IMG/VR virus record: IMGVR_UViG_3300012942_000008 | Location: 1 to 53,213 of that record | Strand: one strand, 5' to 3' | From: a virus | Lineage: Duplodnaviria; Caudoviricetes | Length of the DNA: 53,213 bases | Part shown: positions 14,241 through 43,001 of the stretch, one piece after another | Numbering within the stretch: the first letter of the stretch is position 1 | How the letters are laid out: every line of letters starts with the position of its first letter | The notes under the pieces: model-generated | Database searches by the model: none | What the model saw: only the letters and a program-made list of their open reading frames with translations | Told to the model about the DNA's origin: nothing | Position numbers and translations under genes: made by a program

Positions 14241-15383
14241 TCACCGTACAATCCCGTCGCCAGCCTGCTCAACCACAGGCACTTCATGGTCATAGCGTTT
14301 GACCATGCCCGGGTCGACATGGCCCCCTGATTTCTTGTCCTTGGAATCGGTGATGCCCCGGTGCTTGAGGCCATGCAGGCTGAAGCGCTCCTCCGGCCTG
14401 ATCACCTTTTCTTGAATGGCCAGCTTCACGAAGCGCTGCCAGGCGCTGTCCAGGGTGGAGCGTTCAATCGGCCGACCTTCCTCGTTGACCAGCAAACGCC
14501 GCTGATCGGCTCGCATGGGCACGACGCGGCCCGCGCGCGACCAGATGGCTTTTCGGTAGGCCACAGCCTGCTCCCACACTTCATCGAGTTCCGGTGACCA
14601 GCGAGTGATGTTGTCGAGTGAACCTTTGCGCCGGTTCGTATGCACGCCATCGGGATGGTGGTGGGCGTCCGTGAGGGTCAGCACCTCGATGCCGCGCAGA
14701 CGACAGCGGTAGGCCAGCACCATGACCATCCAGAGGTATGGAGGGCACGATCCGAGCGAATGTCCCGTGAGTGCGCCGCGGGCGCGCGCGAAGGCAATCG
14801 TGGCGTTCATCGTGGCCACGGTCGGCATCTTGAACTGGCGTCGCTCTACGGCCGCGTCAAGCTCGTGCGCGGGATTGGCCCGCTCGCGCATCTTTCCCCG
14901 CTGCATACCCCAGGCGAAGAGCCGGCCGAGGTAGCGCTTCACGTGGTTCGCGGCTGTGGGGCGCGTGGCGCCGATCGTGTCGACCAATTGCTGCATGTCT
15001 TGCCGGCGCAAGCGGTCGACCATCAGCTGGTCGAAGGACACGCCTCGCCGCGTGGGGGTGCGGCTGAGCACCTTCATGCTGGCCTTGTAGCTGCGCTGCG
15101 TACCCTCAGAAAGTGCGGCCCACTGCGGCGATGCCATGAACTGCTGGTGCAGCCAGTCGATCGATCCACGGTCGACGTGCGCGAGCTCCTCGATGGATCG
15201 GTGGAGATCGGCCAGGGTTGCGGCCGCGCCGGCCAGTCGCTTCCGCCGCTTCCGGCCACCCTCATCGATGTGGGTGTACCAGACGCGGTCGCGCTGGTCC
15301 CAGTAGGCCTTGGGTGGCAGTTTGAGTTGGTCGACGTGGTCAGGGATGCTTGGATCGTACTGACGCGGGCGTCCGCGCTTCAC
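14241..15383 (-). CDS. int: Tyrosine integrase
   Basis: GTG 15383 overlaps the upstream stop; CRLRGIE, RRKGS, LHGLKHRG, GH, KRYD catalytic motifs; next to attP. Confidence 0.9.
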   Translation of the reverse strand: MKRGRPRQYDPSIPDHVDQLKLPPKAYWDQRDRVWYTHIDEGGRKRRKRLAGAAATLADLHRSIEELAHVDRGSIDWLHQQFMASPQWAALSEGTQRSYKASMKVLSRTPTRRGVSFDQLMVDRLRRQDMQQLVDTIGATRPTAANHVKRYLGRLFAWGMQRGKMRERANPAHELDAAVERRQFKMPTVATMNATIAFARARGALTGHSLGSCPPYLWMVMVLAYRCRLRGIEVLTLTDAHHHPDGVHTNRRKGSLDNITRWSPELDEVWEQAVAYRKAIWSRAGRVVPMRADQRRLLVNEEGRPIERSTLDSAWQRFVKLAIQEKVIRPEERFSLHGLKHRGITDSKDKKSGGHVDPGMVKRYDHEVPVVEQAGDGIVR

Positions 15384-15589
15384 AGGGTAGGCCCCTCGTA
15401 CATCCCGTCGTTCGCGCTCCGTTGCAGGCCGCCGGCGGCGTTGATCAGGTCGAGTGTCGTCCACGGCCCATCCTTCCCCCAGAAAAGCCGCACGCCCTGT
15501 TGGCTGAGACAGCGCTCAATGTCGCTGGCGCGCTGGTAGCCCGTGGCAGACTGCAGGTCTGCGGTGGTCAAAATGCCATCGTGATGCAC
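15380..15589 (-). CDS. Excisionase-like DUF4224 protein
   Basis: LTTADLQSATGYQR...L...GV; coupled upstream of int. Confidence 0.7.
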   Translation of the reverse strand: MHHDGILTTADLQSATGYQRASDIERCLSQQGVRLFWGKDGPWTTLDLINAAGGLQRSANDGMYEGPTL

Positions 15590-15617
15590 AATCAGTACCC
15601 TCAACAACCCTCGTGCA

Positions 15618-17104: not shown

Positions 17105-18451
17105 TCAGATCCTGATGCGAAGGGCGCGCCCTTCGAGTCGATAGCTGAAGGTTCGCCGGACGTCAGTGAGCGGTCGCAGCCACGGGTTTCGACGGTGGAT
17201 GGTTTGTTGCAGGCGCCAGGTGTTCGCGTGGCGCATGTGGCCTTTGGAACTGGCCCAGATGGATTGCAGGTGCCGGAAGTCGTCGGGTGTACCTATGGCT
17301 TCGCGCCCGCGAAGATGCTCCGCACGCCACTCATTGAGCGCAGCGGTTGTGTGCTGCAGGACCCGTCGACGTACTCGGGTATGCGTCGGATAGGTCACAT
17401 AGCCAAGAAAGTCGATGCCGCAGGTCAATGGCCGTAGGCGAATGTCGTCTTTCAGTTCGAGTCCGAGTTCGTTGCGCAGGAAAGCGCGTATCTGCTCCAA
17501 CCACGTTTCCAGTTGTGCGCGATCACGGTGGATCAGCACCATGTCGTCCACGTAGCGCACGTACCGTTTCACGCGCAGTACACGCTTCACGTATTGATCG
17601 AGCGGATCGAGGTAGACGTTCGCCAAAAACTGGCTGCTGAGGTTTCCTGCCGGCATGCCGCAATTCGGTGCAGCATTTTCCAGCCGTTTGTACGCGGGCA
17701 CATGCGCCAGTTCTTCCGGCGTGCAACGGTAGATGACGCCGGTCTTCTCGACCGATTGGCGTAACAGGGCATGTGTGGCGTGCATGATCCACGGCGCCAC
17801 CTCGGCGCGCTCCAGGGGAGGCCTCATGCGGCGCCACAGCTTTTCGCGATTGATCGACGGAAAGAAGTTCTTGATGTCGATCTGGAGATACCAGCCACGA
17901 CCCTGACCACTGGCTACCTGTCGCGCGAACTGCTGCACACGCTGCACGGCCTTGTGACTTCCCTTCCCCTTGCGATTGGCGTAGCTGTCGAAAATGAAGG
18001 CTGGCTCGTACACGGCTTCCAGCGGCGGAACGATCGCGTGATGAACCACGCGATCCGCGAAATCCGGCGCATGAATTTGCCGAGCCTTCGGCCGCTTCAC
18101 GATGAAGCAAGTGGAGGGCTTTGGCTTCCAGGTGAAATTGTTGAGTTGTTGTTGGAGTTCCAGCAGGCGATCCATCCAACAGTGATCGAATCGGACCTGA
18201 TTGGCGCTTGCTACCTTGCCGCGGCGTGCTTTCACCAACGACTGATACAGCTCTTTGTACGTGACACCCTGACTCTCACTGGCGGGCAGCGGGCGGCACA
18301 CGGCCAAGGCCCGGTTGTGGTTGTTGCGGTTGTTCCTGTTGACGGTGCCCGTGTCGAAATTGACGTTCCACGCGTTGTCGGCAGGCGACGACGCTAACCC
18401 GGAAACTTGCGATCCCGCCGAGCGATCAAACAGATGGCGCGGCATCGTCAT
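17105..18451 (-). CDS. DGR reverse transcriptase
   Basis: KARRGK, DRVVHHA, DIKNFFPSI, GMPAGNLSSQ (DGR-type SQ), YVRYVDD, GIDFLGY; adjacent to TR and Avd. Confidence 0.95.
   Translation of the reverse strand: MTMPRHLFDRSAGSQVSGLASSPADNAWNVNFDTGTVNRNNRNNHNRALAVCRPLPASESQGVTYKELYQSLVKARRGKVASANQVRFDHCWMDRLLELQQQLNNFTWKPKPSTCFIVKRPKARQIHAPDFADRVVHHAIVPPLEAVYEPAFIFDSYANRKGKGSHKAVQRVQQFARQVASGQGRGWYLQIDIKNFFPSINREKLWRRMRPPLERAEVAPWIMHATHALLRQSVEKTGVIYRCTPEELAHVPAYKRLENAAPNCGMPAGNLSSQFLANVYLDPLDQYVKRVLRVKRYVRYVDDMVLIHRDRAQLETWLEQIRAFLRNELGLELKDDIRLRPLTCGIDFLGYVTYPTHTRVRRRVLQHTTAALNEWRAEHLRGREAIGTPDDFRHLQSIWASSKGHMRHANTWRLQQTIHRRNPWLRPLTDVRRTFSYRLEGRALRIRI
18278..18394 (-). repeat. DGR template repeat (TR), 117 bp
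   Basis: AAC-rich copy (ASSPADNAWNVNFDTGTVNRNNRNNHNRALAVCRPLPAS); differs from three VRs only at adenines. Confidence 0.95.
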
Positions 18452-18882
18452 GCGTTGGCCTCACACGTCGAGGCGTTCCGGGCACTCAGAGTCTTGGCAC
18501 GCTGGCGGGAGATGACAGTCCCGCCATTCTGGCCGTTAGGGTGTTGCAAACTGCGTTTCCAGCCACCGACCATGCGGCCGAGCTCGACCTTCCTTCGGGA
18601 CAGGGCGCCGAGATGGTTGGAGCGGATCTGGCCCAAATCCCTGGCCGTCTGAAGGCCTTCGCCAAGATCATCCAATGTCCACGACAAATCGCTCACCCAC
18701 TTTGCCGCATTGGCCTTATCGCGCCAGGCACGATTGATGAGCGAAACCATTCTGTCGGCATGCCCGCAGATCGTACGGCCAAGCTCATGGCGATAATCGT
18801 GCGTGAAGCGACCCACTGTGCGGTGCACCTCTGCACGGAAAGAGCGAGCCTTCTTCATGATCGGTGGAATGGCTGGATTCAT
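18448..18882 (-). CDS. avd: DGR accessory variability determinant (four-helix bundle)
   Basis: Basic ~144-aa protein, F..DYRHELG and ELGRMVGGWKRS motifs; lies between VR1 and TR. Confidence 0.88.
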   Translation of the reverse strand: MNPAIPPIMKKARSFRAEVHRTVGRFTHDYRHELGRTICGHADRMVSLINRAWRDKANAAKWVSDLSWTLDDLGEGLQTARDLGQIRSNHLGALSRRKVELGRMVGGWKRSLQHPNGQNGGTVISRQRAKTLSARNASTCEANA

Positions 18883-18912
18883 GGCTGGATCAAAAGCGCC
18901 AAAAAGGCCCAA

Positions 18913-19395
18913 TCACCGCTGACTGGCGGGCAGCGGGCGGCACACGGCCAAGGCCCGGTTGCGGCTGCCGCGGTAGCCCCCGCCGACGGCGCCCGCGTCG
19001 AAACTGACGCACCACGCGTCGTCGGCAGGCGACGACGCGTCAGTATCCTTGAGCCAGCACCATTCCGATTTGATGCCCGGGTGTTTCGCAACATCGACCG
19101 CGGGATTGTGTTTGCTGTAATCGACCAGCAGGACGGCCTCGCGCGGCACAGCAAGATCCCACGGCGCGTGGCCAGGGACTTGTTCCAGCTTCGATACCGC
19201 GGACTGTGCTTCGTGATGCGAGACCTTGTCGGTTAGCGTGTAGAGCAGGTCGGTGCCGTGGATGCGGTGCACGCCATCGGGTAGGCGCTTGCCGGCAATC
19301 ACGTCCAGTTTGTCGGAGAGCGCCTTGGCGATGGCTTCCACTGCCGTGCCTGGGTTGTCAATGGTGACGCTCAGATTGATCGTTTGTTGCGTCAT
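18913..19395 (-). CDS. DGR target 1, small Lcl/DUF1566-like CLec-fold protein
   Basis: WDLAVPREAVLLVDYSKHNPAVD...W...AWCVSF..G.V; C-terminal VR. Confidence 0.85.
   Translation of the reverse strand: MTQQTINLSVTIDNPGTAVEAIAKALSDKLDVIAGKRLPDGVHRIHGTDLLYTLTDKVSHHEAQSAVSKLEQVPGHAPWDLAVPREAVLLVDYSKHNPAVDVAKHPGIKSEWCWLKDTDASSPADDAWCVSFDAGAVGGGYRGSRNRALAVCRPLPASQR
18922..19038 (-). repeat. Variable repeat VR1
   Basis: 16 mismatches to TR, all at TR adenines. Confidence 0.95.
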
Positions 19396-19428
19396 GGAAA
19401 TCTCCAGTGAGGTAGGGCGATCTTTCCG

Positions 19429-19839
19429 TCAGCGCGGACGCGGCGTGCCGGCGAGATCAGCTGCCGCGTCGGCGTCGGTAAGTAACTTTCGCGCCAGCTC
19501 GTCGCGCAGGCGGAAGCCGAGTAGCGGCCAGACCTTCTGGACTGCGTTCTGGCGAGCGATCTTCTGGCCGACCTCTGCGTTGAAGTTCGCCGGGGCGGCA
19601 CACGCCGATTCGCCGGTGACGGTGAAGCCATTGCGAAGCACTAGGACGCAGAACGTCAGGAGGTTGGCTTCGACGGGTACGTTCGGAGCCGCATCGGACG
19701 TGAGCTGCGCCTTCATGATTCCCTGTGCAGCCGTGAAGTAGTACTCGCCGACGATTTCCGCCTCGATATCAGTCGGTGTCACGCGCGGCGCGGTCAGCCC
19801 TTTGGCTTGGATTTCATTTTCAATCTGTTCGTCGGTCAT
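19429..19839 (-). CDS. Phage Gp49/Gp66-family protein
   Basis: APRVTP...LTFCVLVLRNGFTVTGESAC...NFNAEVGQKIA...VWPLLGF. Confidence 0.8.
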   Translation of the reverse strand: MTDEQIENEIQAKGLTAPRVTPTDIEAEIVGEYYFTAAQGIMKAQLTSDAAPNVPVEANLLTFCVLVLRNGFTVTGESACAAPANFNAEVGQKIARQNAVQKVWPLLGFRLRDELARKLLTDADAAADLAGTPRPR

Positions 19840-19942
19840 GGAAGGTCTCGAATTGGGAGGGCTGCCGGTTACGGATCCGGCGCTGATGTCTCTGTGCTAC
19901 AAGTCGCACCAACAGAGCAGCCGTCGCCACTGGGTCATGCAA

Positions 19943-20752
19943 TCAGGGGGTGAAATTGCCGATGTGGAGCGTGGCCGCGTCGCCGATCTGGTTCGTGAGC
20001 ACCTTGCGGAACTCGTCGGCGATAGCTTCGATGGCCGACTCCAGGCCGATGGGGCGGAGTACCAGCTGCGGCTTGTCGCCTCCAGTAAGCACTGACAGGC
20101 GCAAGGTGAACGTACGCTGCGACAACCCCGTGTAGGGCGTCACGATGTAGCTCAGCGCGTAGGGAATGCCTTCGTCGGCAGACGCCTCGATATCCTCGAT
20201 CGCGGAACGGCGTGCGCCGAAGTCCTTGTCCTGGTGCGTGGCCTCGGACGTTGCCTTGATCGTGAGCTTGCGAATGGCCGCAATGGCCTTCGCCATCGTG
20301 ATGACGGATCCGTCCTTCTGGATCGCGCTGACGTTGCTGGACCAGTCCTCGATCCATTCGACCAAGGCGCGCTGGTCCAGGCGCTTGCCGTTCACGCCGA
20401 GCATGGCGGCATATTCCGGTGTCGGCTTGAGTTGCAGGGCGGCCGTCCAGTCGCCATGGCCCGGCGTGCCGGCATCCCCAAGATTGAAGAACACCTCGGC
20501 CGACATCCTCTCGGCATTGACGAAGCCAGCAGCGGGAACATTATCGTCGGCGTTGCCTTTCACGTATTCGGCGAAAGACTCCAACGAGTCGCTGGTGTAA
20601 CTGCCGCGGAAGCGGGAGCGGCCCTGATTGAGGGCTTCGAGCGAGATGATGTGGCCATTGTGGAAAATGGCTGGCGTAGGGGTGGCCAGCTTGTTCAGGC
20701 CGGCTGCGTCGACGGCAAGTTTGCCGATCGCGTCAACTGCGGAAGAATCCAT
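19943..20752 (-). CDS. DUF2303 (YfdQ-like) protein
   Basis: RSRFRGSY, PGHGD, Q..LVEWIEDW, PYTGL..R.F.LRL motifs. Confidence 0.8.
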   Translation of the reverse strand: MDSSAVDAIGKLAVDAAGLNKLATPTPAIFHNGHIISLEALNQGRSRFRGSYTSDSLESFAEYVKGNADDNVPAAGFVNAERMSAEVFFNLGDAGTPGHGDWTAALQLKPTPEYAAMLGVNGKRLDQRALVEWIEDWSSNVSAIQKDGSVITMAKAIAAIRKLTIKATSEATHQDKDFGARRSAIEDIEASADEGIPYALSYIVTPYTGLSQRTFTLRLSVLTGGDKPQLVLRPIGLESAIEAIADEFRKVLTNQIGDAATLHIGNFTP

Positions 20753-20927
20753 GATGTGTTCCTTGTTGCGTGGATGAAGTGGTGGCAGTGGCTGGCGCTA
20801 ATCTCCAGCTTATTGAGGCGTGTTGTTCGGCGATTACGATGTTTCTACCGGCCTCGAACCGTCTATGTTTCTCGCCGCACGTTGCGCAGTGAGCCCATCA
20901 GCCTGCGCATTCACTGCCATAGGGGAA

Positions 20928-21308
20928 TCAGTGGGTGGCGTCGGCGCGAGTGCCCGTGTCAGCACCCCGCTTCGGGAACATCTCGGTCTGCTCCTCGGGA
21001 TACAGCGACAACTTGCCGCCGCGGCCGACGTGCAGCGGGGTATCGGTCGCCGATTCCTCGATGATCCGGCCGCGCGCCATCGGCACCACGGACTTGAGCG
21101 AATGCGTCATGGCGACTTGGCTGGAATCGCCGATCTGCTTGAGCGTGAACTTCACAGTCAGCTCGCCCTTCTTGCCGTGCGTGCAGACGTTGGCGGCGAT
21201 ATCGCTGATCGCCGAGCTGATCTGCTGTTCGAACACGCCGGCATTCAGGTCGCCGAGCAATGCGGGAAAGTCGGTACGTCCGGTGGGATTCGGGGTGTTG
21301 GTGTCCAT
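20928..21308 (-). CDS. YfdP-like protein (usual DUF2303 partner)
   Basis: GGAGGA RBS; LNAGVFEQ...KKGELTVKF...TPLHVGRGGKLS. Confidence 0.7.
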   Translation of the reverse strand: MDTNTPNPTGRTDFPALLGDLNAGVFEQQISSAISDIAANVCTHGKKGELTVKFTLKQIGDSSQVAMTHSLKSVVPMARGRIIEESATDTPLHVGRGGKLSLYPEEQTEMFPKRGADTGTRADATH

Positions 21309-21323
21309 GTGGTCCTCCATTGG

Positions 21324-21659
21324 TCAGGTTGGCCACCAGGTCAGCGCCTGGCGTCCGGTGATGGAACAGGTGCGTGCATCGCCCTTGTGCACTGCGCCGC
21401 CGGTGATGCATTCCGGCAGGCGTCGAGCGAGCATGTAGCGGTCCAGGTCGGTTTTCAGGGCCAGCTCGAAGCTGGTCTGGCCCGGGAAGGCGCGTACAGC
21501 AGCAATGGCTTGGGCCTGTTGCTGTCCGCGCGTGCCGTCGGTGGTGATCTGCTCGGCGGCAAGGTGTGAGGTGTGTGGATCGGTCCGGCGTGCGGCTGGC
21601 GTCTCCACGCGACGGCACGGCGTGGAGAAGTTGAAGTCCAGTTGAGCGGCGCCGGCCAT
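21324..21659 (-). CDS. Winged-HTH hypothetical protein
   Basis: ARRTDPHTSHLAA, PGQTSFELA, RRLPE. Confidence 0.6.
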   Translation of the reverse strand: MAGAAQLDFNFSTPCRRVETPAARRTDPHTSHLAAEQITTDGTRGQQQAQAIAAVRAFPGQTSFELALKTDLDRYMLARRLPECITGGAVHKGDARTCSITGRQALTWWPT

Positions 21660-21661
21660 GA

Positions 21662-23371
21662 TTAGCTCGCCTTCTGCGCCTGGAACTGCAAGTTTTCGGC
21701 CGCAGCAGCGATGACATCAGCCATTGCGCGATAGATCGCTGGCAAGTCGTAGCAGCCGTACAATTTCGCAGCACGCTCTTGCCCTACAGGGGCGAATCCA
21801 AGCTCGGCGAGACCGCCAGCGGTGATTGAAAGCGGGCCGATGCTGGCATTGATGTCGCCGAGCTTGATGCGTTCGGTGGAGCTCCCGGCCGGAGTCGAGC
21901 CGGCGACTGTCTGCTTGGAGAGCAGTTGCTCTACCGGCTGAGCTACGGACGCAGGTGCCGGTTGATCGATCGCAGTCGTAGTGACCTCATGCGCAGCCTG
22001 CTCGCGCTGCAGCTTGGCCGCTTCCTCGGCACGAATGCGCTCGCGCTCGTCTTCCTGACGCTGCGCTTCGCGCTGTTCGTATTCGACGATACGGGCAGAT
22101 GCCAAGTTGCGAAGGTCGTCCGGTGCTTTGCTGGCGCAGAGCTGCACGCGATCGGCGAACAGGTGGGCATGCTGTTGGTGCTCGGCCAGGACCGCTACGT
22201 TGGCCCGAACGCGGTCAGCCTGCTGGCTGGCGTCGATCTTGGCTGATGCGACGGCAGTGCCGACGGCGTCGCGAATGCTGGCGAGAGTTTTCTTGCCCTT
22301 GATCGCCTCGCCGATCTGAGCGTTCAGGGCGGCCGGTAGCGTCAGAGCATGCTCGCCAAGCGACGTATTGATGGCCGCGTAGTGATCGCGCACTTCATCG
22401 GCGCCTGCGGCAACGACGTCCGCTCGACGTCGCTCTTTCTCGACCTTGACCACCCGATCCAGGGCCAAGCGCGCGGCCCTGATGGTGTCGTGCACGCTGT
22501 CCGCAGTGCGCATGACCGTCTCCACATCGGCCATCTGCGCCAGGGCTGCATCCTTGGCCGCCTTGATCCGGCCCTCTGCCTCGGTGCAAGCCTTGACCGC
22601 GGCCTCGGCGTCAGCGAAGTCCTGGTCGGTCTGAAGTTCGGCCGGCTTCGGAAGCCGTGCGATGAATGCCTCGGCGCCGGCCTTGAATGCGTCCAGGTTG
22701 GATGCCAATACACGGCCCTCTACGCGCAGGGAGAGCGTGCCAAAACCTTCGATAGGGGAGGCCACTAGGGGCGCAGCGATCGTCTCGGGGATATAAGCAA
22801 CGACGTCTGCCGAAAGCTGTGCCCAGCCCACGATGATGCGCTCGCGTAGTGCGAGGTCGGGCGTATACCAGCAATGGCGTTCCTCGGCTAGCTGGTCACC
22901 TTCCCACCTTGATGCCATGAACAGCACGCGCTCAGCGCCGGAAACCATGCACTGATGCTCCATCTGCGCGCGATAGTGGTCTGGCAGGTGCGAGCCGTCA
23001 TCCAGCCACACAAGGCTTCGTAGATCGGCATTGAGCGTCTTGTGCTCGAACGCGATCTCCCAGAGCATCGTAAGACCGTCGAAGCTGGCCGAGAACTTGC
23101 CGTCCTCGCCGACGCACGGGAACAGTTCCTCGCCGACCAGACCCTCGGCCATCGGTCGCGCCAGCGCTTCATAACGGTGGCCGTCATCGAATCTGCGCTG
23201 CGTGGCTGCGTCCACCTCGGTATGGACGCCGGTTGCCAGCTCGCGGATCAGCTGATCGCGGCTCTTGTAGGGCGAGACGCCGAGCATGGCCGGTGCGTCA
23301 CTGGCGTTGAAGTGCGTGGCACGGTGCTGGTGCCACGCGGGAGTGCCTTGAATGAGATTCAGGATCTTCAT
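21662..23371 (-). CDS. YqaJ/lambda-exonuclease-family nuclease with coiled-coil C-terminus
   Basis: QGTPAWHQHR, ASDAPAMLG.SPYK, ASFDG, FEHK, Y.AQ. Confidence 0.88.
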   Translation of the reverse strand: MKILNLIQGTPAWHQHRATHFNASDAPAMLGVSPYKSRDQLIRELATGVHTEVDAATQRRFDDGHRYEALARPMAEGLVGEELFPCVGEDGKFSASFDGLTMLWEIAFEHKTLNADLRSLVWLDDGSHLPDHYRAQMEHQCMVSGAERVLFMASRWEGDQLAEERHCWYTPDLALRERIIVGWAQLSADVVAYIPETIAAPLVASPIEGFGTLSLRVEGRVLASNLDAFKAGAEAFIARLPKPAELQTDQDFADAEAAVKACTEAEGRIKAAKDAALAQMADVETVMRTADSVHDTIRAARLALDRVVKVEKERRRADVVAAGADEVRDHYAAINTSLGEHALTLPAALNAQIGEAIKGKKTLASIRDAVGTAVASAKIDASQQADRVRANVAVLAEHQQHAHLFADRVQLCASKAPDDLRNLASARIVEYEQREAQRQEDERERIRAEEAAKLQREQAAHEVTTTAIDQPAPASVAQPVEQLLSKQTVAGSTPAGSSTERIKLGDINASIGPLSITAGGLAELGFAPVGQERAAKLYGCYDLPAIYRAMADVIAAAAENLQFQAQKAS

Positions 23372-24138
23372 TCCGACACCTCGCCGTCCGAAATTTCGCA
23401 CGACCGGATAGCGTTCTTTTGCTCGACGGTGAGCGCGCCCTTGGTTTCTGCCATGGCGATGATATCGGCAGCGCTACGACGGCCGGATTCGATCACTTTG
23501 CGCCAGGTCGGCAGGTTACGGTTGAAGTCTTCGACCGGGTATTCAGTGGGCTGCGCATGCTCTACGACACTGGCGGTCGCACGTGCCGGCTCCGGGTCTT
23601 CCATCTCGTCCGGCGTGTAGACGCCCAGCATCGCGGCAGGGGCCCAACGCCTCGCCCACTGGCGCGTGCCTCGGTAGGCGAGCATGTCGTCCGGACTCTT
23701 CTTCCAGTTGTCGTTGCTGGTGGCCCACTGCTCGACGGTGCCATCAATTGACCGGGTCTTGCCGCTGCGAAGCGTTCCGGTGACGACGATCTTGCGGTGC
23801 TGGCCGGCGCCGGAGTATTCGAAGTCCAGCTCGTCCTGAATAGCGCCCATTGAGCGAAGCGCCGCGGAAACCAGCTTGCCCTCGTAGCAGAGCTTGCCGC
23901 GCACCACAGACGTGCACTGGGCTACGGATACCGGGTCCATGTTCCAGCGCTGGGCCTGCATGACGACAAGCAAGCAATCGCCCGGCTTGCCGCGCAAATG
24001 GTCGGGCAGCAGGTTGGCCTTGGACATGATGTCGGCGAGTTCCATGGCCTCGGACATCGAAGTCGGAACCAGTGCATTCATCCTTGCGCTGTTGGACATG
24101 CCAACAGCTTGCGGAGCCACTACGGCTACAGCGTTCAT
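23368..24138 (-). CDS. RecT-like single-strand annealing protein
   Basis: PDHLRGKPGDC, WKKSPDDML, LGVYTPDEM; coupled to the exonuclease. Confidence 0.8.
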   Translation of the reverse strand: MNAVAVVAPQAVGMSNSARMNALVPTSMSEAMELADIMSKANLLPDHLRGKPGDCLLVVMQAQRWNMDPVSVAQCTSVVRGKLCYEGKLVSAALRSMGAIQDELDFEYSGAGQHRKIVVTGTLRSGKTRSIDGTVEQWATSNDNWKKSPDDMLAYRGTRQWARRWAPAAMLGVYTPDEMEDPEPARATASVVEHAQPTEYPVEDFNRNLPTWRKVIESGRRSAADIIAMAETKGALTVEQKNAIRSCEISDGEVSE

Positions 24139-24202
24139 CGAATCTCCTGCCGGCTACCGGCCGGCGCGGTGCGGAATGGGGGAAAGCGCCAAAAAGGCCC
24201 AA

Positions 24203-24649
24203 TCACCGCTGACTGGCGGGCAGCGGGCGGCACACGGCCAAGGCCCGGTAGCGGTAGCCGCGGCCGTTCCTGAGGACGGCGCCCGAGCCGAAACCGACGC
24301 ACCACGCGTAGCCGGCAGGCGACGACGCATCAGGCGTGCGAGTCCAATGCCATTCCGGCTTGATGTGCGGGTACTGTTCGGGATCGGCCGCCGGACTGAA
24401 AAAGCGACGGTCGATGATCAACTCGGCGTCTTTGTCGCTCATCAGCTCCCACGGCGTGTAGCCAGGGATCTGCTCAAGCTTGGTGCAGGCCTTTTCGGCT
24501 CCCTCCTGCGTCAGATCCTTGTCACTGGCATAGGTAGTGACGACCTGGTCGCGCAGGTTGAGGATGCCGGCATAGTCGTTTGCGTCGCTGGAAAGGTGCG
24601 AGCCGTCGGCAGCAAGCTTGATGATGAGGATCTGCGGAGCATCGGACAT
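24203..24649 (-). CDS. DGR target 2, small Lcl/DUF1566-like protein
   Basis: AEKACTKL...WEL...LIIDRRFFSPAAD..YP.....WHWTRT; C-terminal VR. Confidence 0.85.
   Translation of the reverse strand: MSDAPQILIIKLAADGSHLSSDANDYAGILNLRDQVVTTYASDKDLTQEGAEKACTKLEQIPGYTPWELMSDKDAELIIDRRFFSPAADPEQYPHIKPEWHWTRTPDASSPAGYAWCVGFGSGAVLRNGRGYRYRALAVCRPLPASQR
24212..24328 (-). repeat. Variable repeat VR2
   Basis: 18 mismatches to TR, all at TR adenines. Confidence 0.95.
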
Positions 24650-24661
24650 GTGTCGGTTCCT

Positions 24662-25000
24662 TCAGCTGTGGAATTCGGGCACGCAGCCATCGCGTGTGGC
24701 GGCGGACTGTGCGATGTAGTCATTGCGGTTGCGCTCGCTGAGCACGTCGTAGGTGGCCAGCTGTGGTTCGGGCGCGGTGATCGTGCTTGCCGGAACGCGC
24801 CATTTCGCGTGCTCGACAATGCTCGGGTCGAGGTGAGGTTCGCCGGCCACGGCGCGATCCAGGGGTAGATCGGCACCGCACGGAGGGGCGGCGGCCGTGG
24901 CCGGCGAAGGGGGCGCGATGCCGAGGGCTCGTGCGAATTCAGCCAGCACGTCGCGCGCTTCGTCGTCGCTGTAAAAGACGAGATCGGAATAGCCGCACAT
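24662..25000 (-). CDS. Hypothetical protein
   Basis: ATG overlaps the upstream stop; operon packing. Confidence 0.45.
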   Translation of the reverse strand: MCGYSDLVFYSDDEARDVLAEFARALGIAPPSPATAAAPPCGADLPLDRAVAGEPHLDPSIVEHAKWRVPASTITAPEPQLATYDVLSERNRNDYIAQSAATRDGCVPEFHS

Positions 25001-25281
25001 TACGGGTACACCCCGAAGATCCAGGCGCGCAGGATCGTGGCGGCGAGATAGATGCCGCCCATGTAGAGCAGGATCGCGGCGCAGGCGTAGACGGGCCACG
25101 CCTTGTCGTCCATGCGCTCCATCCATGCGGTGGCGCGATCCAGCCACGCCAGAAACCGGAGGATCCAATTACGCGGCGGTTTGCGCGTGGCCTGGATGGG
25201 CGCGAGGCGCAGCGGTGAGCGTGCGCGCTGCCAGCGCAGGTACGCACGCTGTTCGGTGCGGAGCTTGCGGGGCGCATTCAT
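25000..25281 (-). CDS. Small membrane protein
   Basis: ATGA coupling; C-terminal TM segment. Confidence 0.5.
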   Translation of the reverse strand: MNAPRKLRTEQRAYLRWQRARSPLRLAPIQATRKPPRNWILRFLAWLDRATAWMERMDDKAWPVYACAAILLYMGGIYLAATILRAWIFGVYP

Positions 25282-25685
25282 GCCGCACCTTCCTGCCGCG
25301 CTGCCCACCGTGCTTCGGCGCGATCCTGATTAGCGCGCTCAACAGCTTCAGCCGCCTCTTCTTCGACGCGGTCATGGGCCAAATTGTCGATGTAGGTGCG
25401 AGCGGCTTTGCGCAGGATGCGTGCGAGTTCGGCATCGTCGGTGCCGTCGCGGAACAATGCGAGCACCCGGGCAGCTTGCGGATGATTGGTGCGAAGCGTC
25501 CGGTAGTAACCCACCGTGCTGACGGCATCGTCCAGTGCGTCGGTCAGGTGTTCCAGGTCTTGCCACATTTCGTCGGCGAGCTGGCTGGCACGTTCGTTGA
25601 TCTGGTCTTCGCGACCCGATGCGAGTCCTTGAATTTCAGCGTATTGCCGGGCGGCACGGCCGGCGTAGCAGGGGAGGGCGTTCAC
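25278..25685 (-). CDS. Hypothetical protein
   Basis: GTGA coupling, GGAGG RBS. Confidence 0.55.
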   Translation of the reverse strand: MNALPCYAGRAARQYAEIQGLASGREDQINERASQLADEMWQDLEHLTDALDDAVSTVGYYRTLRTNHPQAARVLALFRDGTDDAELARILRKAARTYIDNLAHDRVEEEAAEAVERANQDRAEARWAARQEGAA

Positions 25686-25879
25686 GGCTTCACCTCCACG
25701 CTCTCGTATGAGCGCGCCTGTACGACATCCATAGCATCGGCGGCGAACAGCACCAGTTCTTCGCGCCCCATCGTGACGGTCGCGTCGCCAATGTAGACAA
25801 GGAACTCTTTGCCCGGCGCATCCGATGGACTCGCGACAATGCGCGGCTTGCCAACGGTGACGGTGACGATGCTGGCCAT
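25682..25879 (-). CDS. Hypothetical protein
   Basis: ATG 25879 overlaps the upstream stop; GAGG RBS. Confidence 0.5.
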   Translation of the reverse strand: MASIVTVTVGKPRIVASPSDAPGKEFLVYIGDATVTMGREELVLFAADAMDVVQARSYESVEVKP

Positions 25880-26082
25880 CACGCCACCTCGCACAGCAGG
25901 CCAGTGGCGCGAGCCAGCCGGACCTGACGTTCGGACCAAAGCGTGCGTGCAGCCATGCGTGCGTTTGCTTCGGTGGTGTAGGTGGATGAAGTGCGAATCA
26001 GCGTTGCGTACGTCGTGCCGTCCAGCACCTCACCGCGATACGCGGCTCCGATGCGCTCGGCGTGATAGATGACTTGGTTCAT
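25879..26082 (-). CDS. Hypothetical protein
   Basis: ATG 26082 with GGAGG RBS. Confidence 0.55.
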   Translation of the reverse strand: MNQVIYHAERIGAAYRGEVLDGTTYATLIRTSSTYTTEANARMAARTLWSERQVRLARATGLLCEVA

Positions 26083-26118
26083 GCCTGGACCTCCCTGAAG
26101 AGCGCCAAAAAGGCCCAA

Positions 26119-26517
26119 TCACTGCTGACTGGCGGGCAGCGGGCGGCACACGGCCAAGGCCCGGCAGTGGCAGTCGCGGTAGCCCCCGCCGACGGTGCCC
26201 GAGCCGAAATTGACGCCCCACGCGCAGTCGGCAGGCGACGACGCATCTACCGGCTTGAGCCAGTACCAATACGAACCGATGCCGGGATGCTTCTTTGTGT
26301 TGACAGCGGGGCTGTAGCGGCTGTCGTCGATCAGCAGGACGGCCTCGCGCTTCTCCGCGAGGTCCCACTTGGCGTAGCCGGGCACCTTCGGCAGGCGCTT
26401 GGCCCACTTCCTGGCGTCTTCGTGGGGGAACTGCTCATCACCTGACGTGGTGTAGAGCAGGTCGGTGCCGGCGATACGGCAGACGTTCGCGGGCAGCTTC
26501 GGGGTCTTGGCGGACAT
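26119..26517 (-). CDS. DGR target 3, small Lcl/DUF1566-like protein; first gene after pL
   Basis: GGAGG RBS; WDLAEKREAVLLIDDSRYSPAVN...WYW; C-terminal VR. Confidence 0.85.
   Translation of the reverse strand: MSAKTPKLPANVCRIAGTDLLYTTSGDEQFPHEDARKWAKRLPKVPGYAKWDLAEKREAVLLIDDSRYSPAVNTKKHPGIGSYWYWLKPVDASSPADCAWGVNFGSGTVGGGYRDCHCRALAVCRPLPASQQ
26128..26244 (-). repeat. Variable repeat VR3
   Basis: 17 mismatches to TR, all at TR adenines. Confidence 0.95.
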
Positions 26518-26545
26518 GGGCACCTCCGTGGTGAGTTCGGAGGTG

Positions 26546-26586
26546 AAGGTAAATCTATGCTTGCCTTATGTCAAGCGATGATTGTC
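26546..26586 (-). promoter_or_regulatory. pL-like sigma70 promoter with two 17-bp operators
   Basis: TTGACA-17-TACCTT; operators GACAATC-ATC-GCTTGAC and GGCAAGC-ATA-GATTTAC match those at pR. Confidence 0.8.
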
Positions 26587-26605
26587 TAGGAATTATTCCT
26601 AGTGA

Positions 26606-26630
26606 CGAAGAACCCCGCCGAAGCGGGGTT
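26606..26630 (-). terminator. Terminator ending the cI-moron transcript
   Basis: AACCCCGC-TTCG-GCGGGGTT followed by CTTC. Confidence 0.6.
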
Positions 26631-27020: not shown

Positions 27021-27032
27021 GATGATTTCCTA

Positions 27033-27311: not shown

Positions 27312-27313
27312 GC

Positions 27314-27957: not shown

Positions 27958-28398
27958 TTAGTCGGTAGTCGTTACTCCTCGCATAGCGGTGAGCATGCGC
28001 GACACCATCCGTTCGGCTGCCTGCATACCGTGGCCTTCCTGGATCATGTCGTAGATGGATAGCACGATATCTGCGCGCGCTTCAGGCTTGACGGAAACTC
28101 TTGCTTTGTCGAGCACCCGTTCAGTGATCTGAAGTGCGCTACGCAAGTTATCGGCGCTTGGTCTCAAATCTTCAGACTTGGATTCGCTGTCATCGCCGTG
28201 AAAGTAGGCGAGCGGCTTGCCCGTCAGCCGGGACAGCGTTGCAAAGTGTCGCTTGTCGACGCGGCCGGTACGCAGCCAGCCTCCCACAGCCTGCTTCGAA
28301 ACGTGGCATTCATCAGCAATGGCTTGCTGCGTAAGCCTTCCGGGCGCTTGAGAAATGGCGCGCTTCAGGCGGTCTCGGAGGTCGGCGGCATCAAGCAT
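27958..28398 (-). CDS. CI-like HTH repressor with no S24 peptidase domain
   Basis: TQQAIADECHVSKQAVGGWLRTG HTH; divergent from the cro-like gene. Confidence 0.8.
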   Translation of the reverse strand: MLDAADLRDRLKRAISQAPGRLTQQAIADECHVSKQAVGGWLRTGRVDKRHFATLSRLTGKPLAYFHGDDSESKSEDLRPSADNLRSALQITERVLDKARVSVKPEARADIVLSIYDMIQEGHGMQAAERMVSRMLTAMRGVTTTD

Positions 28399-28433: not shown

Positions 28434-28475
28434 AGCAATCTCTGCTTGTCTTTATGGCAAGCATAGGTTTACCAT
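28434..28475 (+). promoter_or_regulatory. pR-like promoter with two 17-bp operators
   Basis: TTGTCT-18-TACCAT; AGCAATC-TCT-GCTTGTC and GGCAAGC-ATA-GGTTTAC. Confidence 0.75.
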
Positions 28476-28481
28476 CGTGGC

Positions 28482-28859
28482 ATGAACGCACTCATCAGAG
28501 CTATCGGTCAGGCCGGCGGCGCACAGGCGGCGCTCGCCGGACGTATTGGTGTCAGCCCCCAACAGGTGAATCAGTGGGTGAAGGGCAAGCGTCCGTTGCC
28601 ACTGGATCGGTGTCCTTTGATCGAGCGAGCGACGTCCGGCGCCGTCCGCTGCGAGGAACTGCGTCCGGACGTGGAGTGGCAACGCGATGCTGGCGACCGC
28701 GTTGTCGGTTACCAAGTGCGGCTGTCGGTGCTTGGCGGGGAGGGGAAGCAAGTCACTGGAAACGTGTCGTCGGTTCATGGCGCCACAGCCTCGCGCAAGG
28801 CCGCATCCCGCAAAACCCCTCGCGTGAAGGGTCGGCAAGGGGAGGCGGTCCGTGGATAA
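28482..28859 (+). CDS. Cro/YdaS-like regulator
   Basis: QAALAGRIGVSPQQVNQW...CPLIERAT.G.V..EELRPD. Confidence 0.85.
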   Translation: MNALIRAIGQAGGAQAALAGRIGVSPQQVNQWVKGKRPLPLDRCPLIERATSGAVRCEELRPDVEWQRDAGDRVVGYQVRLSVLGGEGKQVTGNVSSVHGATASRKAASRKTPRVKGRQGEAVRG

Positions 28860-39173: not shown

Positions 39174-40784
39174 ATGCCGTCTTCGCTCAACAACTTCGTC
39201 CGCTCGGTGCTGCAGGCCGACTGCGGCCCGACCGACGACACGCTGATGATCCAGAAGGCGGCTGCGCCGCTGCAGGATCCGCCAGGGGCAACGGAGGATG
39301 CCCCCGGTGTGCTGGCGCTGATCGACCAGCCGTCGACGCCGACGAAGGTCGAGATCGTCGCGTACACGGGCCAGTCGGTGGCCGGCGACATCGTGACGCT
39401 GACTGGGGTCAGCCGTGGCCAGGAAGGCACGACGGCGCAGTCGTGGACGGCCGGCACGCCCACGTATCAGCCGATCACGGCCGGCGTGATCCAGGCGCTG
39501 CAGACGGACGTCGCCGGCAAGCTGGCGTCCGACGGCACCGCGGTGGCGGCCGATAAGTGGGCTGCGGCCATCACGCTGACCCTGGCCGGCAAAGCCACCG
39601 GCTCGGTGCAGATCGACGGCAGCGGCAACGTCACTCTGAATGTGACAGACATCAACGCCGACTTCCTGTCGACATGGGATGCGCAAGGAAGCCGCCTACT
39701 CAACCTCGGCAGTGCACAGCTCGACTCCGATGGCGCGCAGTGGGGCCAAGTGCAACTGGCCATCGAGCAAGCGCTGTCAGGGAGTGGCAATCCGACGACG
39801 GTCGCTGTCGCGCCCAAGCTGTACTCGTGGGATGCCAACGGCACCGACACCGATTTCCCGCTGGATGACTCGGACGTCACGGACGCGCTGTTCTACGACG
39901 TGGCCGTGGGCGATGCCGGCGAACTGCGCGAGCCCTACACGGATTACACCGTCGTTGGCGATCCCGGCGACTTGGCGCTGCGCTTTGCTGCCGCGCCGGC
40001 CGCCGGCCGCGTGTGGGCTGTGCTGCGCGGTTACGCGCGGCCCTATGCTGGCGCACAGCCGCTGACCACGGTCGCCTTCCGCGTCGTCAGCCTCACGGGC
40101 GCGGCAACGATCGATGGCAGCTACCAGAACACGCTGATTCTGGTCACGGCCAGCGAAGACGTGACGCTGACGATCCCGGCCAACGCCGGCACCGTCGATG
40201 ACTGGAAGGCGGGCGAGTTCTTCTCGGTCATGCAGGTCGGCTCCGGCAAGGTCACGATCGCCGTGGCCGATGGTGGCAGCCTGGTGCCGCTACCTGGATT
40301 CAGCGTCCAGACCCGCGACCAGGACAGCATCATCAGTGCCAGCTGCCTCTACGCCGACGCGAACCAGTGGGCGATTACCGGCGACCTGCTGCGCACCGTA
40401 GCATCGCCGAGCGTGGAGGCCTTCACGCTGCCCTGCAGCGATGAGACTGCCACGGATATCGCGGTGGCGGCGAACGTCTACCAGTTCCGCATGCCCTACG
40501 CGCTGCTTCTGACCGAAGCGCGGGCGACGCTGAACGTGGCGCAGACCACCGGCGACTTGGTATCGGTGGACGTGAAGGTGAACGGCACCTCCATCTTCAG
40601 CACGCAGCCCAGCATCGACAATGGCGAGCTGACCAGCACTACGGCCGATACACCGCCGGTGCTGGCGAATCCGGACAGCACTGTGCTGGCCGACGGCGAC
40701 CTTTTGTCGGTGGACGTGACGCAGGTCGGCACGGCCGGCGCCCGCGGCCTGAAGGTGCAGCTGATCGGCCAGCGTGCGTCGTGA
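39174..40784 (+). CDS. Tail fibre/virion structural protein
   Basis: VSRGQEGTTAQSW, LAGKATGSVQIDGS fibre motifs; beta-rich. Confidence 0.65.
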   Translation: MPSSLNNFVRSVLQADCGPTDDTLMIQKAAAPLQDPPGATEDAPGVLALIDQPSTPTKVEIVAYTGQSVAGDIVTLTGVSRGQEGTTAQSWTAGTPTYQPITAGVIQALQTDVAGKLASDGTAVAADKWAAAITLTLAGKATGSVQIDGSGNVTLNVTDINADFLSTWDAQGSRLLNLGSAQLDSDGAQWGQVQLAIEQALSGSGNPTTVAVAPKLYSWDANGTDTDFPLDDSDVTDALFYDVAVGDAGELREPYTDYTVVGDPGDLALRFAAAPAAGRVWAVLRGYARPYAGAQPLTTVAFRVVSLTGAATIDGSYQNTLILVTASEDVTLTIPANAGTVDDWKAGEFFSVMQVGSGKVTIAVADGGSLVPLPGFSVQTRDQDSIISASCLYADANQWAITGDLLRTVASPSVEAFTLPCSDETATDIAVAANVYQFRMPYALLLTEARATLNVAQTTGDLVSVDVKVNGTSIFSTQPSIDNGELTSTTADTPPVLANPDSTVLADGDLLSVDVTQVGTAGARGLKVQLIGQRAS

Positions 40785-42037
40785 GTGCCAGCCACCGCCT
40801 GTACGATCGCCCATGGCTCGACCAAGGGGGCATGCCAGCGCTGTACGTGACAGGCGCGTTGTCGGCGGCGGCGGTGGAAGCTGCATTCAGCGGCCGGCTG
40901 CAGATCCACAATGCGCAGGGTGCGTGCTGGGCTGAGTTGATCGACGGCGAGTTGCCGAAGGGCTACTCGATCACGGTCGACAACGACACGTCCGAGGTGG
41001 TGGTGGCGTGGCCGGCGTACTCGTCGGGCGAAGTGACGCTGACGAACGGCGACTTCGAATCGGGTGCGAAGGGCTGGAATCTCGGTCCCGGCTGGTCTCT
41101 GACGGATCAGGCCAGCGCCTACAGCGGTCAATGGTGTGCGCAGTGGTCAGGATCAGGTAACAGCCAGATCCTGAGCGATTGGGTGCCGATTGTCGGTGGC
41201 ACCACGACGTCACTGTCGGTAGAGGTGCAACAGGGTGCGTCCAGCTCCGGGAACGTCGGCGCGCAATGCGTGATCGAGTTTCGCGATGCCGACAAACAGC
41301 CCATTGAGGGCGGCGTTGTCACCGGCAACATGGTGGCCTCTGGCTCGGGTGGTGATTGGCATCCGTCCACGTTGACGAACGTTCCGGTGCCTTCCGCTGC
41401 GGCCTGTGCGCGTGCAGGCGGCAGTGCGTACCGGAAACGCGAGACCAAGCCGGCATGGCTCGATGCCGTGCAGTGGACGTGGAACGTCGGCGAGCAGGGT
41501 GCAAATGCGCCCACGGCCTCGACCATCACGATCCGCGTACACGACGCTGCGGGCCGGTATGCCGACTGGACCGGACTTGTTCAGATTGGCTACCTGATTC
41601 TGACTTCCTGGCTCTACCCCATCAATGTGGTCGACGACGCGGACTCTCCGCTGGCAACGGGTGGCAGCGTCAATAATCTATACGGGCTGCTCGGCCACGA
41701 CGACGCGGACTCTCCGCTGGCAACGGGTGGTTCGGTAATCGCGCTGAGCCTCACTGCCACCGTGATCTACGGTAATCACGACCAACCGCAAGATGACGCT
41801 GACTCCGTGTTCGCAACAGGTGGCAGTGTGCAGGCATTGGCGCTGACGGAAACCGTCAGCTACGGCACGTACAGCCATGCGCCGGAAGACGCCGATTCGC
41901 CTATTGCCACCGGCGGTTCGGTGATCGCACTGAGCCTCGTGGTCACCACGAGTTACCAAACCTACGCCCATGCCCAGGATGATGCCGACTCTCCCTTGGG
42001 CGCAGGCGGCAGCGTCATCAACCTATCCCTGACATAA
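40781..42037 (+). CDS. Tail-associated protein with carbohydrate-binding-like domain and C-terminal repeats
   Basis: LTNGDFESG..GW CBM-like start; five DDADSPLATGGSV repeats. Confidence 0.6.
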   Translation: MSASHRLYDRPWLDQGGMPALYVTGALSAAAVEAAFSGRLQIHNAQGACWAELIDGELPKGYSITVDNDTSEVVVAWPAYSSGEVTLTNGDFESGAKGWNLGPGWSLTDQASAYSGQWCAQWSGSGNSQILSDWVPIVGGTTTSLSVEVQQGASSSGNVGAQCVIEFRDADKQPIEGGVVTGNMVASGSGGDWHPSTLTNVPVPSAAACARAGGSAYRKRETKPAWLDAVQWTWNVGEQGANAPTASTITIRVHDAAGRYADWTGLVQIGYLILTSWLYPINVVDDADSPLATGGSVNNLYGLLGHDDADSPLATGGSVIALSLTATVIYGNHDQPQDDADSVFATGGSVQALALTETVSYGTYSHAPEDADSPIATGGSVIALSLVVTTSYQTYAHAQDDADSPLGAGGSVINLSLT

Positions 42038-42047
42038 CGGAGCCCCT

Positions 42048-43001
42048 ATGGCCTCCCCCAAAATCACCGCCTCAGTCAATTGCCAAGTGCAGGGCTATTT
42101 CCGGATGACCGCCGTGCAAGGTGATGGCGACGGCAACCCGATTCCCGGCACCGAGCGCGAGCTGTGCGACTGGACGCCAAATCTCCTGACCGACAACGGC
42201 CTGGAGATGTTGAAGAGCACTGGCTTCCTCGCAACCATCGCCGTGGGCTCCGGATCGACAGCACCCGACAAGACGGATACTGCGCTGAACACACTGGTGG
42301 CGAGTGCGTCGACGAGTATTGCGGATGGACCGAATGATCTCACGGTTGCCGACTATCCGTGGACCAGCGTCACGGCTACAGCCACCTTCGCCAAGGGCGC
42401 CGCTGCGGGTAATTTGTCCGAAATGGGAGTGGGAAAAACCGCCACGAATCTGCTGGCGCGAGCCCTTATTAAGGACAGTGGCGGCAACCCAACGACGATC
42501 ACAGTGTTGCCTATAGAGATCCTGACGGTCACCTACCAGTGGCGCGTCTACTTCGATTTCACGAGTTCGCACAACGATAGTTTCACCATCAACGGCGTCA
42601 CGTATACCACTACGACGATGATGGGGTACATCGGAACCTCGTCGGCGCAATACTGGAATTCGTCTGGTCTCACCAACTATGCGGGATTTGGCGTTTACAC
42701 AGGCGATCTCGGCGCGCCCGGTAGCAGTCCAGCGAACAAAGCGAACAAATACGGGACTACCACCAAAAATTTTTCATTTGGTGATGTCGGTGACAGTTTT
42801 GTCGATTGCGCGATTACCGCGGATGCAAGCGGTAATTCCGTGGATATCTCTGCCGTCGAAGTCAACTTTACCGCTGACTTTTCATACAACAACACGTGGC
42901 AGATCTCGGTCAAATCCGGGATCTCTCCGCCGTTGCCCAAGGACGATACCAACGAGTTTTCCATCACGATACGGTTTGACTGGGCGCGCAAGGTATCCTG
43001 A
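42048..43001 (+). CDS. Tail-associated structural protein
   Basis: NLLTDNGL, VGSGSTAP..TDTAL, GAAAGNLSE.G, RALIKD..GNPTTITV; lower-GC 3' half. Confidence 0.6.
   Translation: MASPKITASVNCQVQGYFRMTAVQGDGDGNPIPGTERELCDWTPNLLTDNGLEMLKSTGFLATIAVGSGSTAPDKTDTALNTLVASASTSIADGPNDLTVADYPWTSVTATATFAKGAAAGNLSEMGVGKTATNLLARALIKDSGGNPTTITVLPIEILTVTYQWRVYFDFTSSHNDSFTINGVTYTTTTMMGYIGTSSAQYWNSSGLTNYAGFGVYTGDLGAPGSSPANKANKYGTTTKNFSFGDVGDSFVDCAITADASGNSVDISAVEVNFTADFSYNNTWQISVKSGISPPLPKDDTNEFSITIRFDWARKVS

Follow-up and report, generated by a model that had tools for sequence, protein, structure and literature searches.

Organization of the locus

The window, the whole 53,213-nucleotide stretch of DNA analyzed here, is the complete genome of a temperate soil phage (IMGVR_UViG_3300012942_000008). 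Profile matches and repeat comparison located an RT, Avd, a 117-bp TR and three VRs exactly where the original prediction had placed them (Table 1). The RT ORF carries the YVDD catalytic motif of a DGR-type RT together with GNLSSQ. The TR is translated within this ORF, in frame, as residues 20-58, so that the TR is not intergenic. A relative, P0174, has the same RT N-terminus, and its RT ORF likewise contains the TR in frame. Avd also matches Pfam bAvd (4e-5), at a score of 24.6 bits that is under the cut-off of 40.

Table 1. Positions of the DGR, its targets and the surrounding early-arm and tail features in the window
Feature	Position	Strand	Details and basis
Integrase-like gene and excisionase	14241..15607	-	end of leftward arm; excisionase PHROG 1266
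DGR reverse transcriptase ORF	17105..18451	-	448 aa; RVT_1 5e-20; start overlaps Avd stop
TR	18278..18394	-	117 bp; 24 variable adenines in 15 codons
Avd	18448..18882	-	ATG start at 18882 likely; PHROG Avd 4.5e-12
Hairpin, VR1 3′ end	18909..18926	-	7 pairs, 4-nt loop; sequence
Target 1	18913..19395	-	160 aa; Lcl_C/CLec with short N-terminal extension; Lcl_C match
VR1	18922..19038	-	16 mismatches to TR, A-only
YqaJ/RecE-like exonuclease	21662..23371	-	early-arm marker; Pfam, PHROGs
RecT-like annealing protein	23368..24138	-	early-arm marker; Pfam, PHROGs
Hairpin, VR2 3′ end	24199-24216	-	same hairpin; sequence
Target 2	24203..24649	-	148 aa; Lcl_C/CLec; Lcl_C match
VR2	24212..24328	-	18 mismatches to TR, A-only
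Hairpin, VR3 3′ end	26115-26132	-	same hairpin; sequence
Target 3	26119..26517	-	132 aa; Lcl_C/CLec; first gene past pL-like site; Lcl_C match
VR3	26128..26244	-	17 mismatches to TR, A-only
pL-like promoter (putative)	26546..26574	-	17-nt spacer; contains 20-mer
GC-rich hairpin	26611..26630		divides three low-GC post-cI genes from leftward operon; putative terminator
CI-like repressor	27958..28398	-	PHROG 4/8
20-mer copy 2	28456..28475	+	upstream of cro; likely operator/pR
Cro-like regulator	28482..28859	+	Pfam, PHROGs
Four tail-fiber-like genes	39174..43582	+	no VR, no Lcl domain

All 51 mismatches between the TR and the VRs fall at TR adenines, a pattern that random placement would give with a probability of ~7e-43. 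Each of the 24 adenines in the variable zone is altered in at least one VR, 9 of the 15 codons are AAY, and no stop codon can be reached. These counts, including the 16, 18 and 17 mismatches, were recomputed and came out as originally given. The predicted 4^24 sequences per gene hold as an upper limit (1.2e14 proteins), but the substitutions are skewed, with 37 A>G, 13 A>T and 1 A>C across the VRs. The GC-rich 3′ segment, the IMH, is invariant, and a hairpin lies 3′ of all three VRs; it is absent after the TR, which diverges there. The whole genome contains exactly 4 matches to the TR and the tail genes contain none. The element is an intact multi-target DGR and is mechanistically ordinary: in the BPP-1 mechanism, TR RNA is copied by RT-Avd, which errs at adenines, and the cDNA replaces the VR.

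The target proteins

The genome encodes exactly three Lcl_C (DUF1566) domains, which are targets 1-3. None lies in a tail gene, so that the claim of VR-free tail genes holds for both TR and Lcl_C matches. The targets had been described as stand-alone domains without signals, and all three indeed lack a hydrophobic N-terminus, a TM stretch and a lipobox, while two adjoining control genes were positive in the same analysis. Structure prediction, one of the checks put forward with the original prediction, gave target 3 a fold of the C-type lectin (CLec) kind at pLDDT 94, with the VR forming the last three strands. This model aligns with 8oks (Z 12.3, rmsd 2.3, 101 aligned) and with Lcl 8q4e (Z 11.1, rmsd 4.2, 113 aligned), and the solved folds closest to it belong to extracellular adhesins. 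The combination of Lcl_C, C-terminal VR and C-type lectin fold is that of the CLec2/DUF1566 class. A single-sequence fold of target 2 reached pLDDT 44 and was discarded.

The closest clusters in the ESM Atlas are small Lcl_C proteins, mostly viral, with no function attached to them. Longer fused forms in relatives join the Lcl domain to phrog_13468, a phage domain whose function is unassigned. Among only 8000 scored candidates, the search for fused forms also returned RTs in which the TR peptide is present, along with surface proteins of several domains, and no fusions to DNA-binding or fiber domains. In a library-wide profile search, large multi-Lcl proteins predominated.

Placement in the early arm

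The target genes sit in the leftward arm, which extends from the repressor to an integrase-like gene that is labeled from its position, its PHROG being of unknown function. The BPP-1 type of target, a large tail-fiber protein in the structural module, is not what is found; the targets are proteins of 132-160 aa in the early arm. Target 3 had been named the first pL gene, and this claim stands in part. A pL-like site, read by eye, has a perfect -35 and a weak -10 (3/6), and its 20-mer recurs elsewhere only in the cI-cro gap (18/20), whereas 100 shuffles gave 0 matches. However, cI and target 3 are separated by three same-strand genes, which the GC-rich hairpin sets apart, and a consensus promoter scan, the totals of which were at chance level, did not call the site. 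The gaps at 19840-19942 and 20753-20927 might also contain promoters, which would uncouple the cassette from pL. No known defense or anti-defense genes were found adjoining the targets, and Pfam and PHROGs searches of the arm, in which several small genes have no family, returned no STAND, vWA-MoxR or effector partners.

Variation in relatives

A relative in run X2, from a different study, has 68 differences over 1208 RT bases and contains all three VR sites, each bearing an allele different from the window's. Three 30-nt loose ends from X2, compared by eye with the window TR, have 26 differences, all at 14 adenine sites, and 0 at the 16 non-adenine sites. The X2 comparison rests on contigs; X1, which may be the source of the window, was left uncounted, and coverage of X3 and X6 was patchy for VR alleles. 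When eight VRs of close relatives are compared with the L208 TR, all 117 differences are at A, and three further VRs, from L171, differ from it at 46 A and 8 other positions; this count of 11 VRs excludes those of L211 and L212, which have indels, and the duplicate L205. The A-specific variation anticipated for relatives is thus seen, and the differing A-only alleles, read from their sequences, show that the DGR was active in the past of this lineage.

Across 11 target-3 orthologues, TR-A codons have an entropy of 2.11 bits, against 0.20 for the remaining VR codons and 0.45 for the scaffold. Two to four intact paralogues are retained in 17 deduplicated loci of the window's RT clade. In L171 the three targets are intact, the TR does not match and the RT is truncated, which indicates that diversification is dispensable at least temporarily. 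In L001, a target is joined to the RT.

How common the layout is

The layout is not unique. Of the small- and mid-size-target DGRs scanned, 28 of 29 have early or replication neighbors. Structural or lysis neighbors accompany 8 of the 10 large-target phage DGRs scanned, and early-arm markers lie upstream of none of these. The small-target early layout occurs in three separate RT clades, across podo-, myo-, sipho-, Mu-like and P2-like phages, and in the cultured phages Magia, Cruim01, Haboob and QDWS; the survey of related phages proposed originally therefore did recover it. Three loci (L006, L008 and L040) are placed where the early and late regions meet, the placement of L116 is ambiguous, and a single PHROG family includes stand-alone copies as well as the tips of large targets encoded in the late region. 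These precedents came via the RT, as tblastn of target 2 against cultured phages gave no match at 1e-3. A second AU test, limited to Lcl-type early rows (p 8e-9), was devised once the tree had been seen, and no conclusion is drawn from it.

Comparison with known systems

To our knowledge, phage DGRs are understood almost solely as host-range switches. The Bordetella phage BPP-1 (mtd-avd-TR-brt) has, like the window, RT, Avd, TR, a C-terminal VR, A-only changes, a 3′ hairpin and a CLec fold. However, its single target is a large virion protein, whereas the window's three targets are small, stand-alone and encoded outside the tail module; the window RT is 29% identical to BPP-1 brt, and the in-frame TR inside the RT ORF is unlike BPP-1.

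The closest parallel in layout is Magia (MT701587; PMC7883833), a temperate Burkholderia phage whose DGR occupies the repressor-side arm, ahead of the integrase, and has three A-only VRs in lectin-fold genes of 120-154 aa, with one target first after the repressor region. Its RT is only 36% identical and belongs to another clade, and its targets are scattered differently. The Magia paper names a DGR with two short targets and guesses at adaptation or host range, and it does not discuss the early placement (PMC7883833). The second DGR target of Quimbyvirus shares a non-structural location on the opposite strand, and a role in phage-host conflict has been proposed for it (Benler 2021, PMC8008677). 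That DGR additionally targets a tail-region gene and is from another host phylum, whereas the window has no structural target. Legionella-type CLec2/DUF1566 DGRs (category d) have the Lcl_C/DUF1566 domain in common with the window, and about half of the targets of the DUF1566 class are stand-alone (Wu 2018, PMC5758913). LdtA, however, is a surface lipoprotein, whereas the window's targets are phage early genes without export signals. The nearest RT neighbors, L091-L093, are apparently cellular elements with exported Lcl targets.

These precedents mean that the novelty of the locus was originally overstated, since the three-target layout of Magia, the conflict role of Benler 2021 and the stand-alone targets of Wu 2018 all came before. 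In the largely open-access literature searched, no paper was found that treats early-arm stand-alone phage DGR targets as a class or tests one, and the supplements of Wu 2018 and Roux 2021 may list some.

A model for diversified early proteins

We give an even chance to a model in which this temperate-phage DGR rewrites the C-terminal binding surface of three early CLec proteins that act inside the cell as putative binders of host proteins, most likely components of anti-phage defense. The leftward arm would be silenced by CI in the lysogen and switch on upon infection or induction, beginning with target 3, and the target proteins would remain cytoplasmic; mutagenesis, as originally suggested, might be linked to induction. 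Each phage genome would carry one allele per gene, the library being spread across the phage population, and selection would retain alleles that bind a useful host target. Of the intracellular library as first proposed, the DGR and the signal-less early-arm targets are observed; that the targets stay out of the virion can reasonably be inferred, a reading strengthened by the recurrence of this layout in phages with different tail types. The model is favored by the A-only mismatches, VR turnover in relatives, orthologue entropy, the CLec model, the lack of export signals, the pL/pR 20-mer and the early neighbors of small-target DGRs. It is disfavored by the adhesin folds nearest to the targets, the PHROG family shared with late-region targets, the lack of a known defense gene beside the targets, a gut-virome survey in which no DGR was aimed at known anti-defense proteins, the boundary and ambiguous loci, the state of L171 and the gaps that might contain promoters.

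The same location and signal evidence would fit intracellular variable binders that serve host takeover or regulation, acting on a host enzyme, protease or regulator or on lysis versus lysogeny, and not counter-defense. The targets neighbor recombination and metabolism genes, and phrog_13468 fusions occur in relatives, yet conserved housekeeping targets would have little need for continual hypermutation, and we regard this role as unlikely. Tropism switching of the BPP-1 kind would instead have the targets made early as small adhesins that dock on tail fibers as detachable receptor-binding tips. This would agree with the guess of the Magia authors, with the experimentally studied phage DGR targets in the cited literature, which are all tail proteins, and with the adhesin-like fold, the family common to late-region targets and the four fiber-like genes of the window. 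However, the fiber genes are on the opposite strand, >12 kb from the targets, unrelated tail types accompany the same small targets, and no fiber or docking domain was found in the targets or the fused forms scored, and we judge such tips improbable.

A similarly low probability attaches to prophage-encoded sensors of competing phages or factors that exclude them, or to soluble receptor-blockers released at lysis. DGR-diversified cytoplasmic CLec domains have been proposed as infection sensors in bacteria (Dore 2024), but the targets have no adjoining effector, STAND or vWA partner, and the likely repressed promoter upstream argues against expression in the lysogen. Lastly, a selfish or decaying DGR could ride the early arm with targets of no benefit, as the loss of a matching TR and a whole RT in L171 and the joined target in L001 might suggest. 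We find this very hard to credit, because intact paralogues are kept in number, the scaffold is conserved while the VR turns over, and the layout is common to three RT clades.

Returning to the counter-defense model, we tentatively extend it, with rather less than even confidence, to temperate phages of Proteobacteria in at least three RT clades. Their DGRs may have been redirected at cytoplasmic lectin-fold proteins of small size that are produced during the first minutes of infection, forming a population-wide, antibody-like repertoire that would evolve defense inhibitors on demand. If the targets bind host proteins intracellularly, then phages would have at their disposal a hypermutable, adaptive answer to bacterial immunity, and partner pull-downs from many alleles could reveal host defense components.

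Architecture of the DGR and its targets

The virus record is complete, bearing terminal repeats. Genes for a repressor, Cro, an excisionase, a terminase and a capsid, along with four that are tail-fibre-like, mark it as a temperate phage. Its DGR is intact. The reverse transcriptase (RT) ORF (448 aa, minus strand) takes in the template repeat (TR), whose in-frame reading gives predicted residues 20-58, an arrangement conserved in P0174. The TR differs from the variable repeats VR1, VR2 and VR3 at 16, 18 and 17 positions, and our recount agrees with the original observation that all of these mismatches (51/51) are at TR adenines, for which the chance figure is ~7e-43. The 24 variable adenines, in 15 codons (9 AAY) from which no stop codon is reachable, were likewise recovered in our TR/VR comparison. 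The proposed 4^24 sequences per gene is no more than a ceiling for DNA variants (1.2e14 for protein variants), because the adenines changed unevenly, 37 to G, 13 to T and 1 to C. A 7-pair hairpin ends each VR and is absent from the TR. Searching the whole genome returned TR matches at four places and Lcl_C matches at three, with neither in the tail genes, where the absence of a VR had been claimed.

All three targets are Lcl_C/DUF1566 domains of 132-160 aa. They had been described as free of signal peptides and TM segments, and a simple hydropathy test agrees: none of the three has a hydrophobic N-terminus, a TM stretch or a lipobox, and the test does flag two neighbouring control genes as positive. 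Structure prediction of target 3, one of the checks proposed earlier, gave a fold of the C-type lectin (CLec) kind with pLDDT 94 (70-row alignment), in which the VR spans the last three strands. The model matches the C-terminal domain of Bdellovibrio Bd2740 (Z 12.3), Legionella Lcl (Z 11.1), which is also the sole PDB match by sequence, and Mtd, the tail protein diversified by Bordetella phage BPP-1 (Z 8.4). Two relatives carry the name Dyella sp., and the host is therefore probably a Rhodanobacteraceae soil bacterium. In P0085, P0171 (named Dyella sp.) and P0172, relatives of the targets are joined to phrog_13468, a phage domain that has a Cys motif and no assigned function.

Features of the window and of compared loci
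Feature	Coordinates	Strand	Description
Target 1	window 18913-19395	minus	Lcl_C/DUF1566 gene, same strand as Avd and RT
Start of RT ORF	window 18278-18451		TR within first 58 residues of predicted ORF; ORF start overlaps Avd stop
Palindrome	window 26586-26602		perfect, 17 bp, immediately upstream of pL-like site
Three genes after cI	window 26652-27949		GC 53% vs 63% genome-wide
First part of this segment	window 26652-27020		predicted secreted protein with 15-residue repeats
Polyvalent protein	window 5179-13497		2772 aa; LPD3, ART-PolyVal (ADP-ribosyltransferase) and LPD38 domains
DGR of L171	L171:16619-17800		TR mismatched to its three VRs; RT breaks off after ~110 residues; three targets intact
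Target-RT join of L001	L001:1-1400		Lcl target in frame with RT; VR in TR's place; no Avd between
Magia gene 46	L085:12163-12627		third DGR target, 11/11 mismatches at A; annotated merely hypothetical

Activity in the lineage

A sequencing run of another study, X2, contains a close relative of the window phage (RT differs at 68 of 1208 bases, and a stretch of ~2010 bases near DUF2303 at 34) whose contigs have loose ends at all three VRs. Read by eye, these ends (30 bases each) show 7, 11 and 8 differences from the window TR, all within 14 adenine sites, and their alleles are unlike the window's own. Eleven VRs of close relatives are all distinct, and 163 of their 171 mismatches to the L208 TR are at A, the remaining 8 all coming from locus L171. 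Across 11 target-3 orthologues, column entropy reaches 2.11 bits at TR-A codons, compared with 0.20 for the remaining codons of the VR and 0.45 for the scaffold. The A-specific variation in relatives whose absence was earlier named as a refutation is present in the X2 alleles and the relatives' VRs and, by comparison of contigs between relatives, the DGR has been active on all three targets at the level of the lineage.

In the close relative L171, with targets 71-76% identical to those of the window and Avd 82%, the engine is lost and the products are kept. The join in L001 is a natural VR-TR recombination or else an artefact of assembly, collapsed where the contig ends.

Position in the early arm

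The targets lie between repressor and integrase, amid RecT, YqaJ, DUF2303 and Gp49/66 genes. Read by eye, the sequence 5' of target 3 has a -35 that is perfect and a -10 that is weak, set 17 nt apart; a consensus promoter scan did not call this pL-like site. The only second copy of a 20-mer of this site, matching at 18/20, lies in the gap between cI and cro (0 matches in 100 shuffles). This sharing, which we take to be the lambdoid pL/pR pattern, makes CI control of the predicted site likely. The shared 20-mer favours the earlier placement of the targets under a repressor-controlled pL.

The adjacent palindrome is possibly a second regulator site, and the three genes after cI are probably accessory genes expressed in the lysogen. 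The polyvalent protein is likely injected from the virion.

Distribution and precedents

We surveyed 165 loci (80 viral, 80 genomic and 5 from cultured phages), which form 120 RT clusters: 41 with targets <=260 aa (among them L080, really 548 aa), 10 with targets <=350 aa, 35 with larger ones, 17 with no VR found and 17 cut by contig ends. Selected neighbours were scanned in 29 of the 50 small- and mid-target clusters, leaving out shorter loci, L068, and the cellular-looking L091-L093 and L102, three of which have likely signal peptides. This survey, also proposed earlier, placed early or replication genes (repressor, Erf/RecE/SSB, ParB, primase, Mu transposase, integrase) beside the targets in 28 of the 29; the assignment of L116 is ambiguous, and three loci (L006, L008, L040) sit where the early and late regions meet. 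Among 10 phage-like large-target DGRs taken as controls, 8 neighbour genes for capsid, tail, terminase or lysis functions, and the other 2 are unassigned.

Within the window clade, 19 of 33 viral loci have a TR with 2-4 VRs, and a hydrophobic N-terminus occurs in 0 of 42 complete targets (136-207 aa; 2 duplicates dropped). RT trees place early-arm elements in three clades, and the tree does not separate gain from loss. On 32 of 117 rows, uniting the 15 early rows in one clade against 7 late ones is rejected (p-AU 0.001). Cellular elements with exported Lcl targets adjoin the window clade. A separate RT clade (L048, L055, L070, L153, L159) has stand-alone FGE-sulfatase-type targets of 228-341 aa, likewise in early arms.

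The window element belongs to the DGR family and to the CLec2/DUF1566 class and, judged by gene structure, not to the BPP-1 tropism type. Phage Magia is similar: its three VRs, all A-only, sit in the same arm within genes of 120-154 aa. Its announcement describes a DGR that targets genes 47 and 57, which it calls relatively short, and proposes a part in adaptation or host range (PMC7883833). Cruim01, Haboob, vB_E192a and QDWS share the layout, which the accessible part of the Cruim01 preprint does not mention. Multiple targets, non-adjacent targets inside prophages and stand-alone DUF1566 targets are reported in the accessible text of Wu 2018 (PMC5758913). Our literature search, supplements aside, did not find early-arm stand-alone targets treated as a class.

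Role of the targets

Viral DGR targets are mostly tail proteins, according to the accessible text of Roux 2021 (PMC8144416). That the targets here are detachable tail tips we hold to be improbable. We give the same low weight to a role in sensing or excluding other phages; cytoplasmic CLec sensors have been proposed in bacteria (Dore 2024, PMC10907252, accessible text). That the DGR is a mere passenger seems very improbable.

We consider it quite probable that the targets act outside the virion. We rate it as an even chance that they bind host proteins, the foremost case being a conflict with defence. A conflict role was proposed for a non-structural target of Quimbyvirus (Benler 2021, PMC8008677, accessible text), and in the accessible part of a 2026 gut-virome preprint known anti-defence genes are not among DGR targets. 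A part in some other aspect of host takeover is unlikely, if less so than the tail-tip or phage-sensing roles. The targets are probably expressed early under CI control and probably cytoplasmic, and selection would act on their binding to host proteins.
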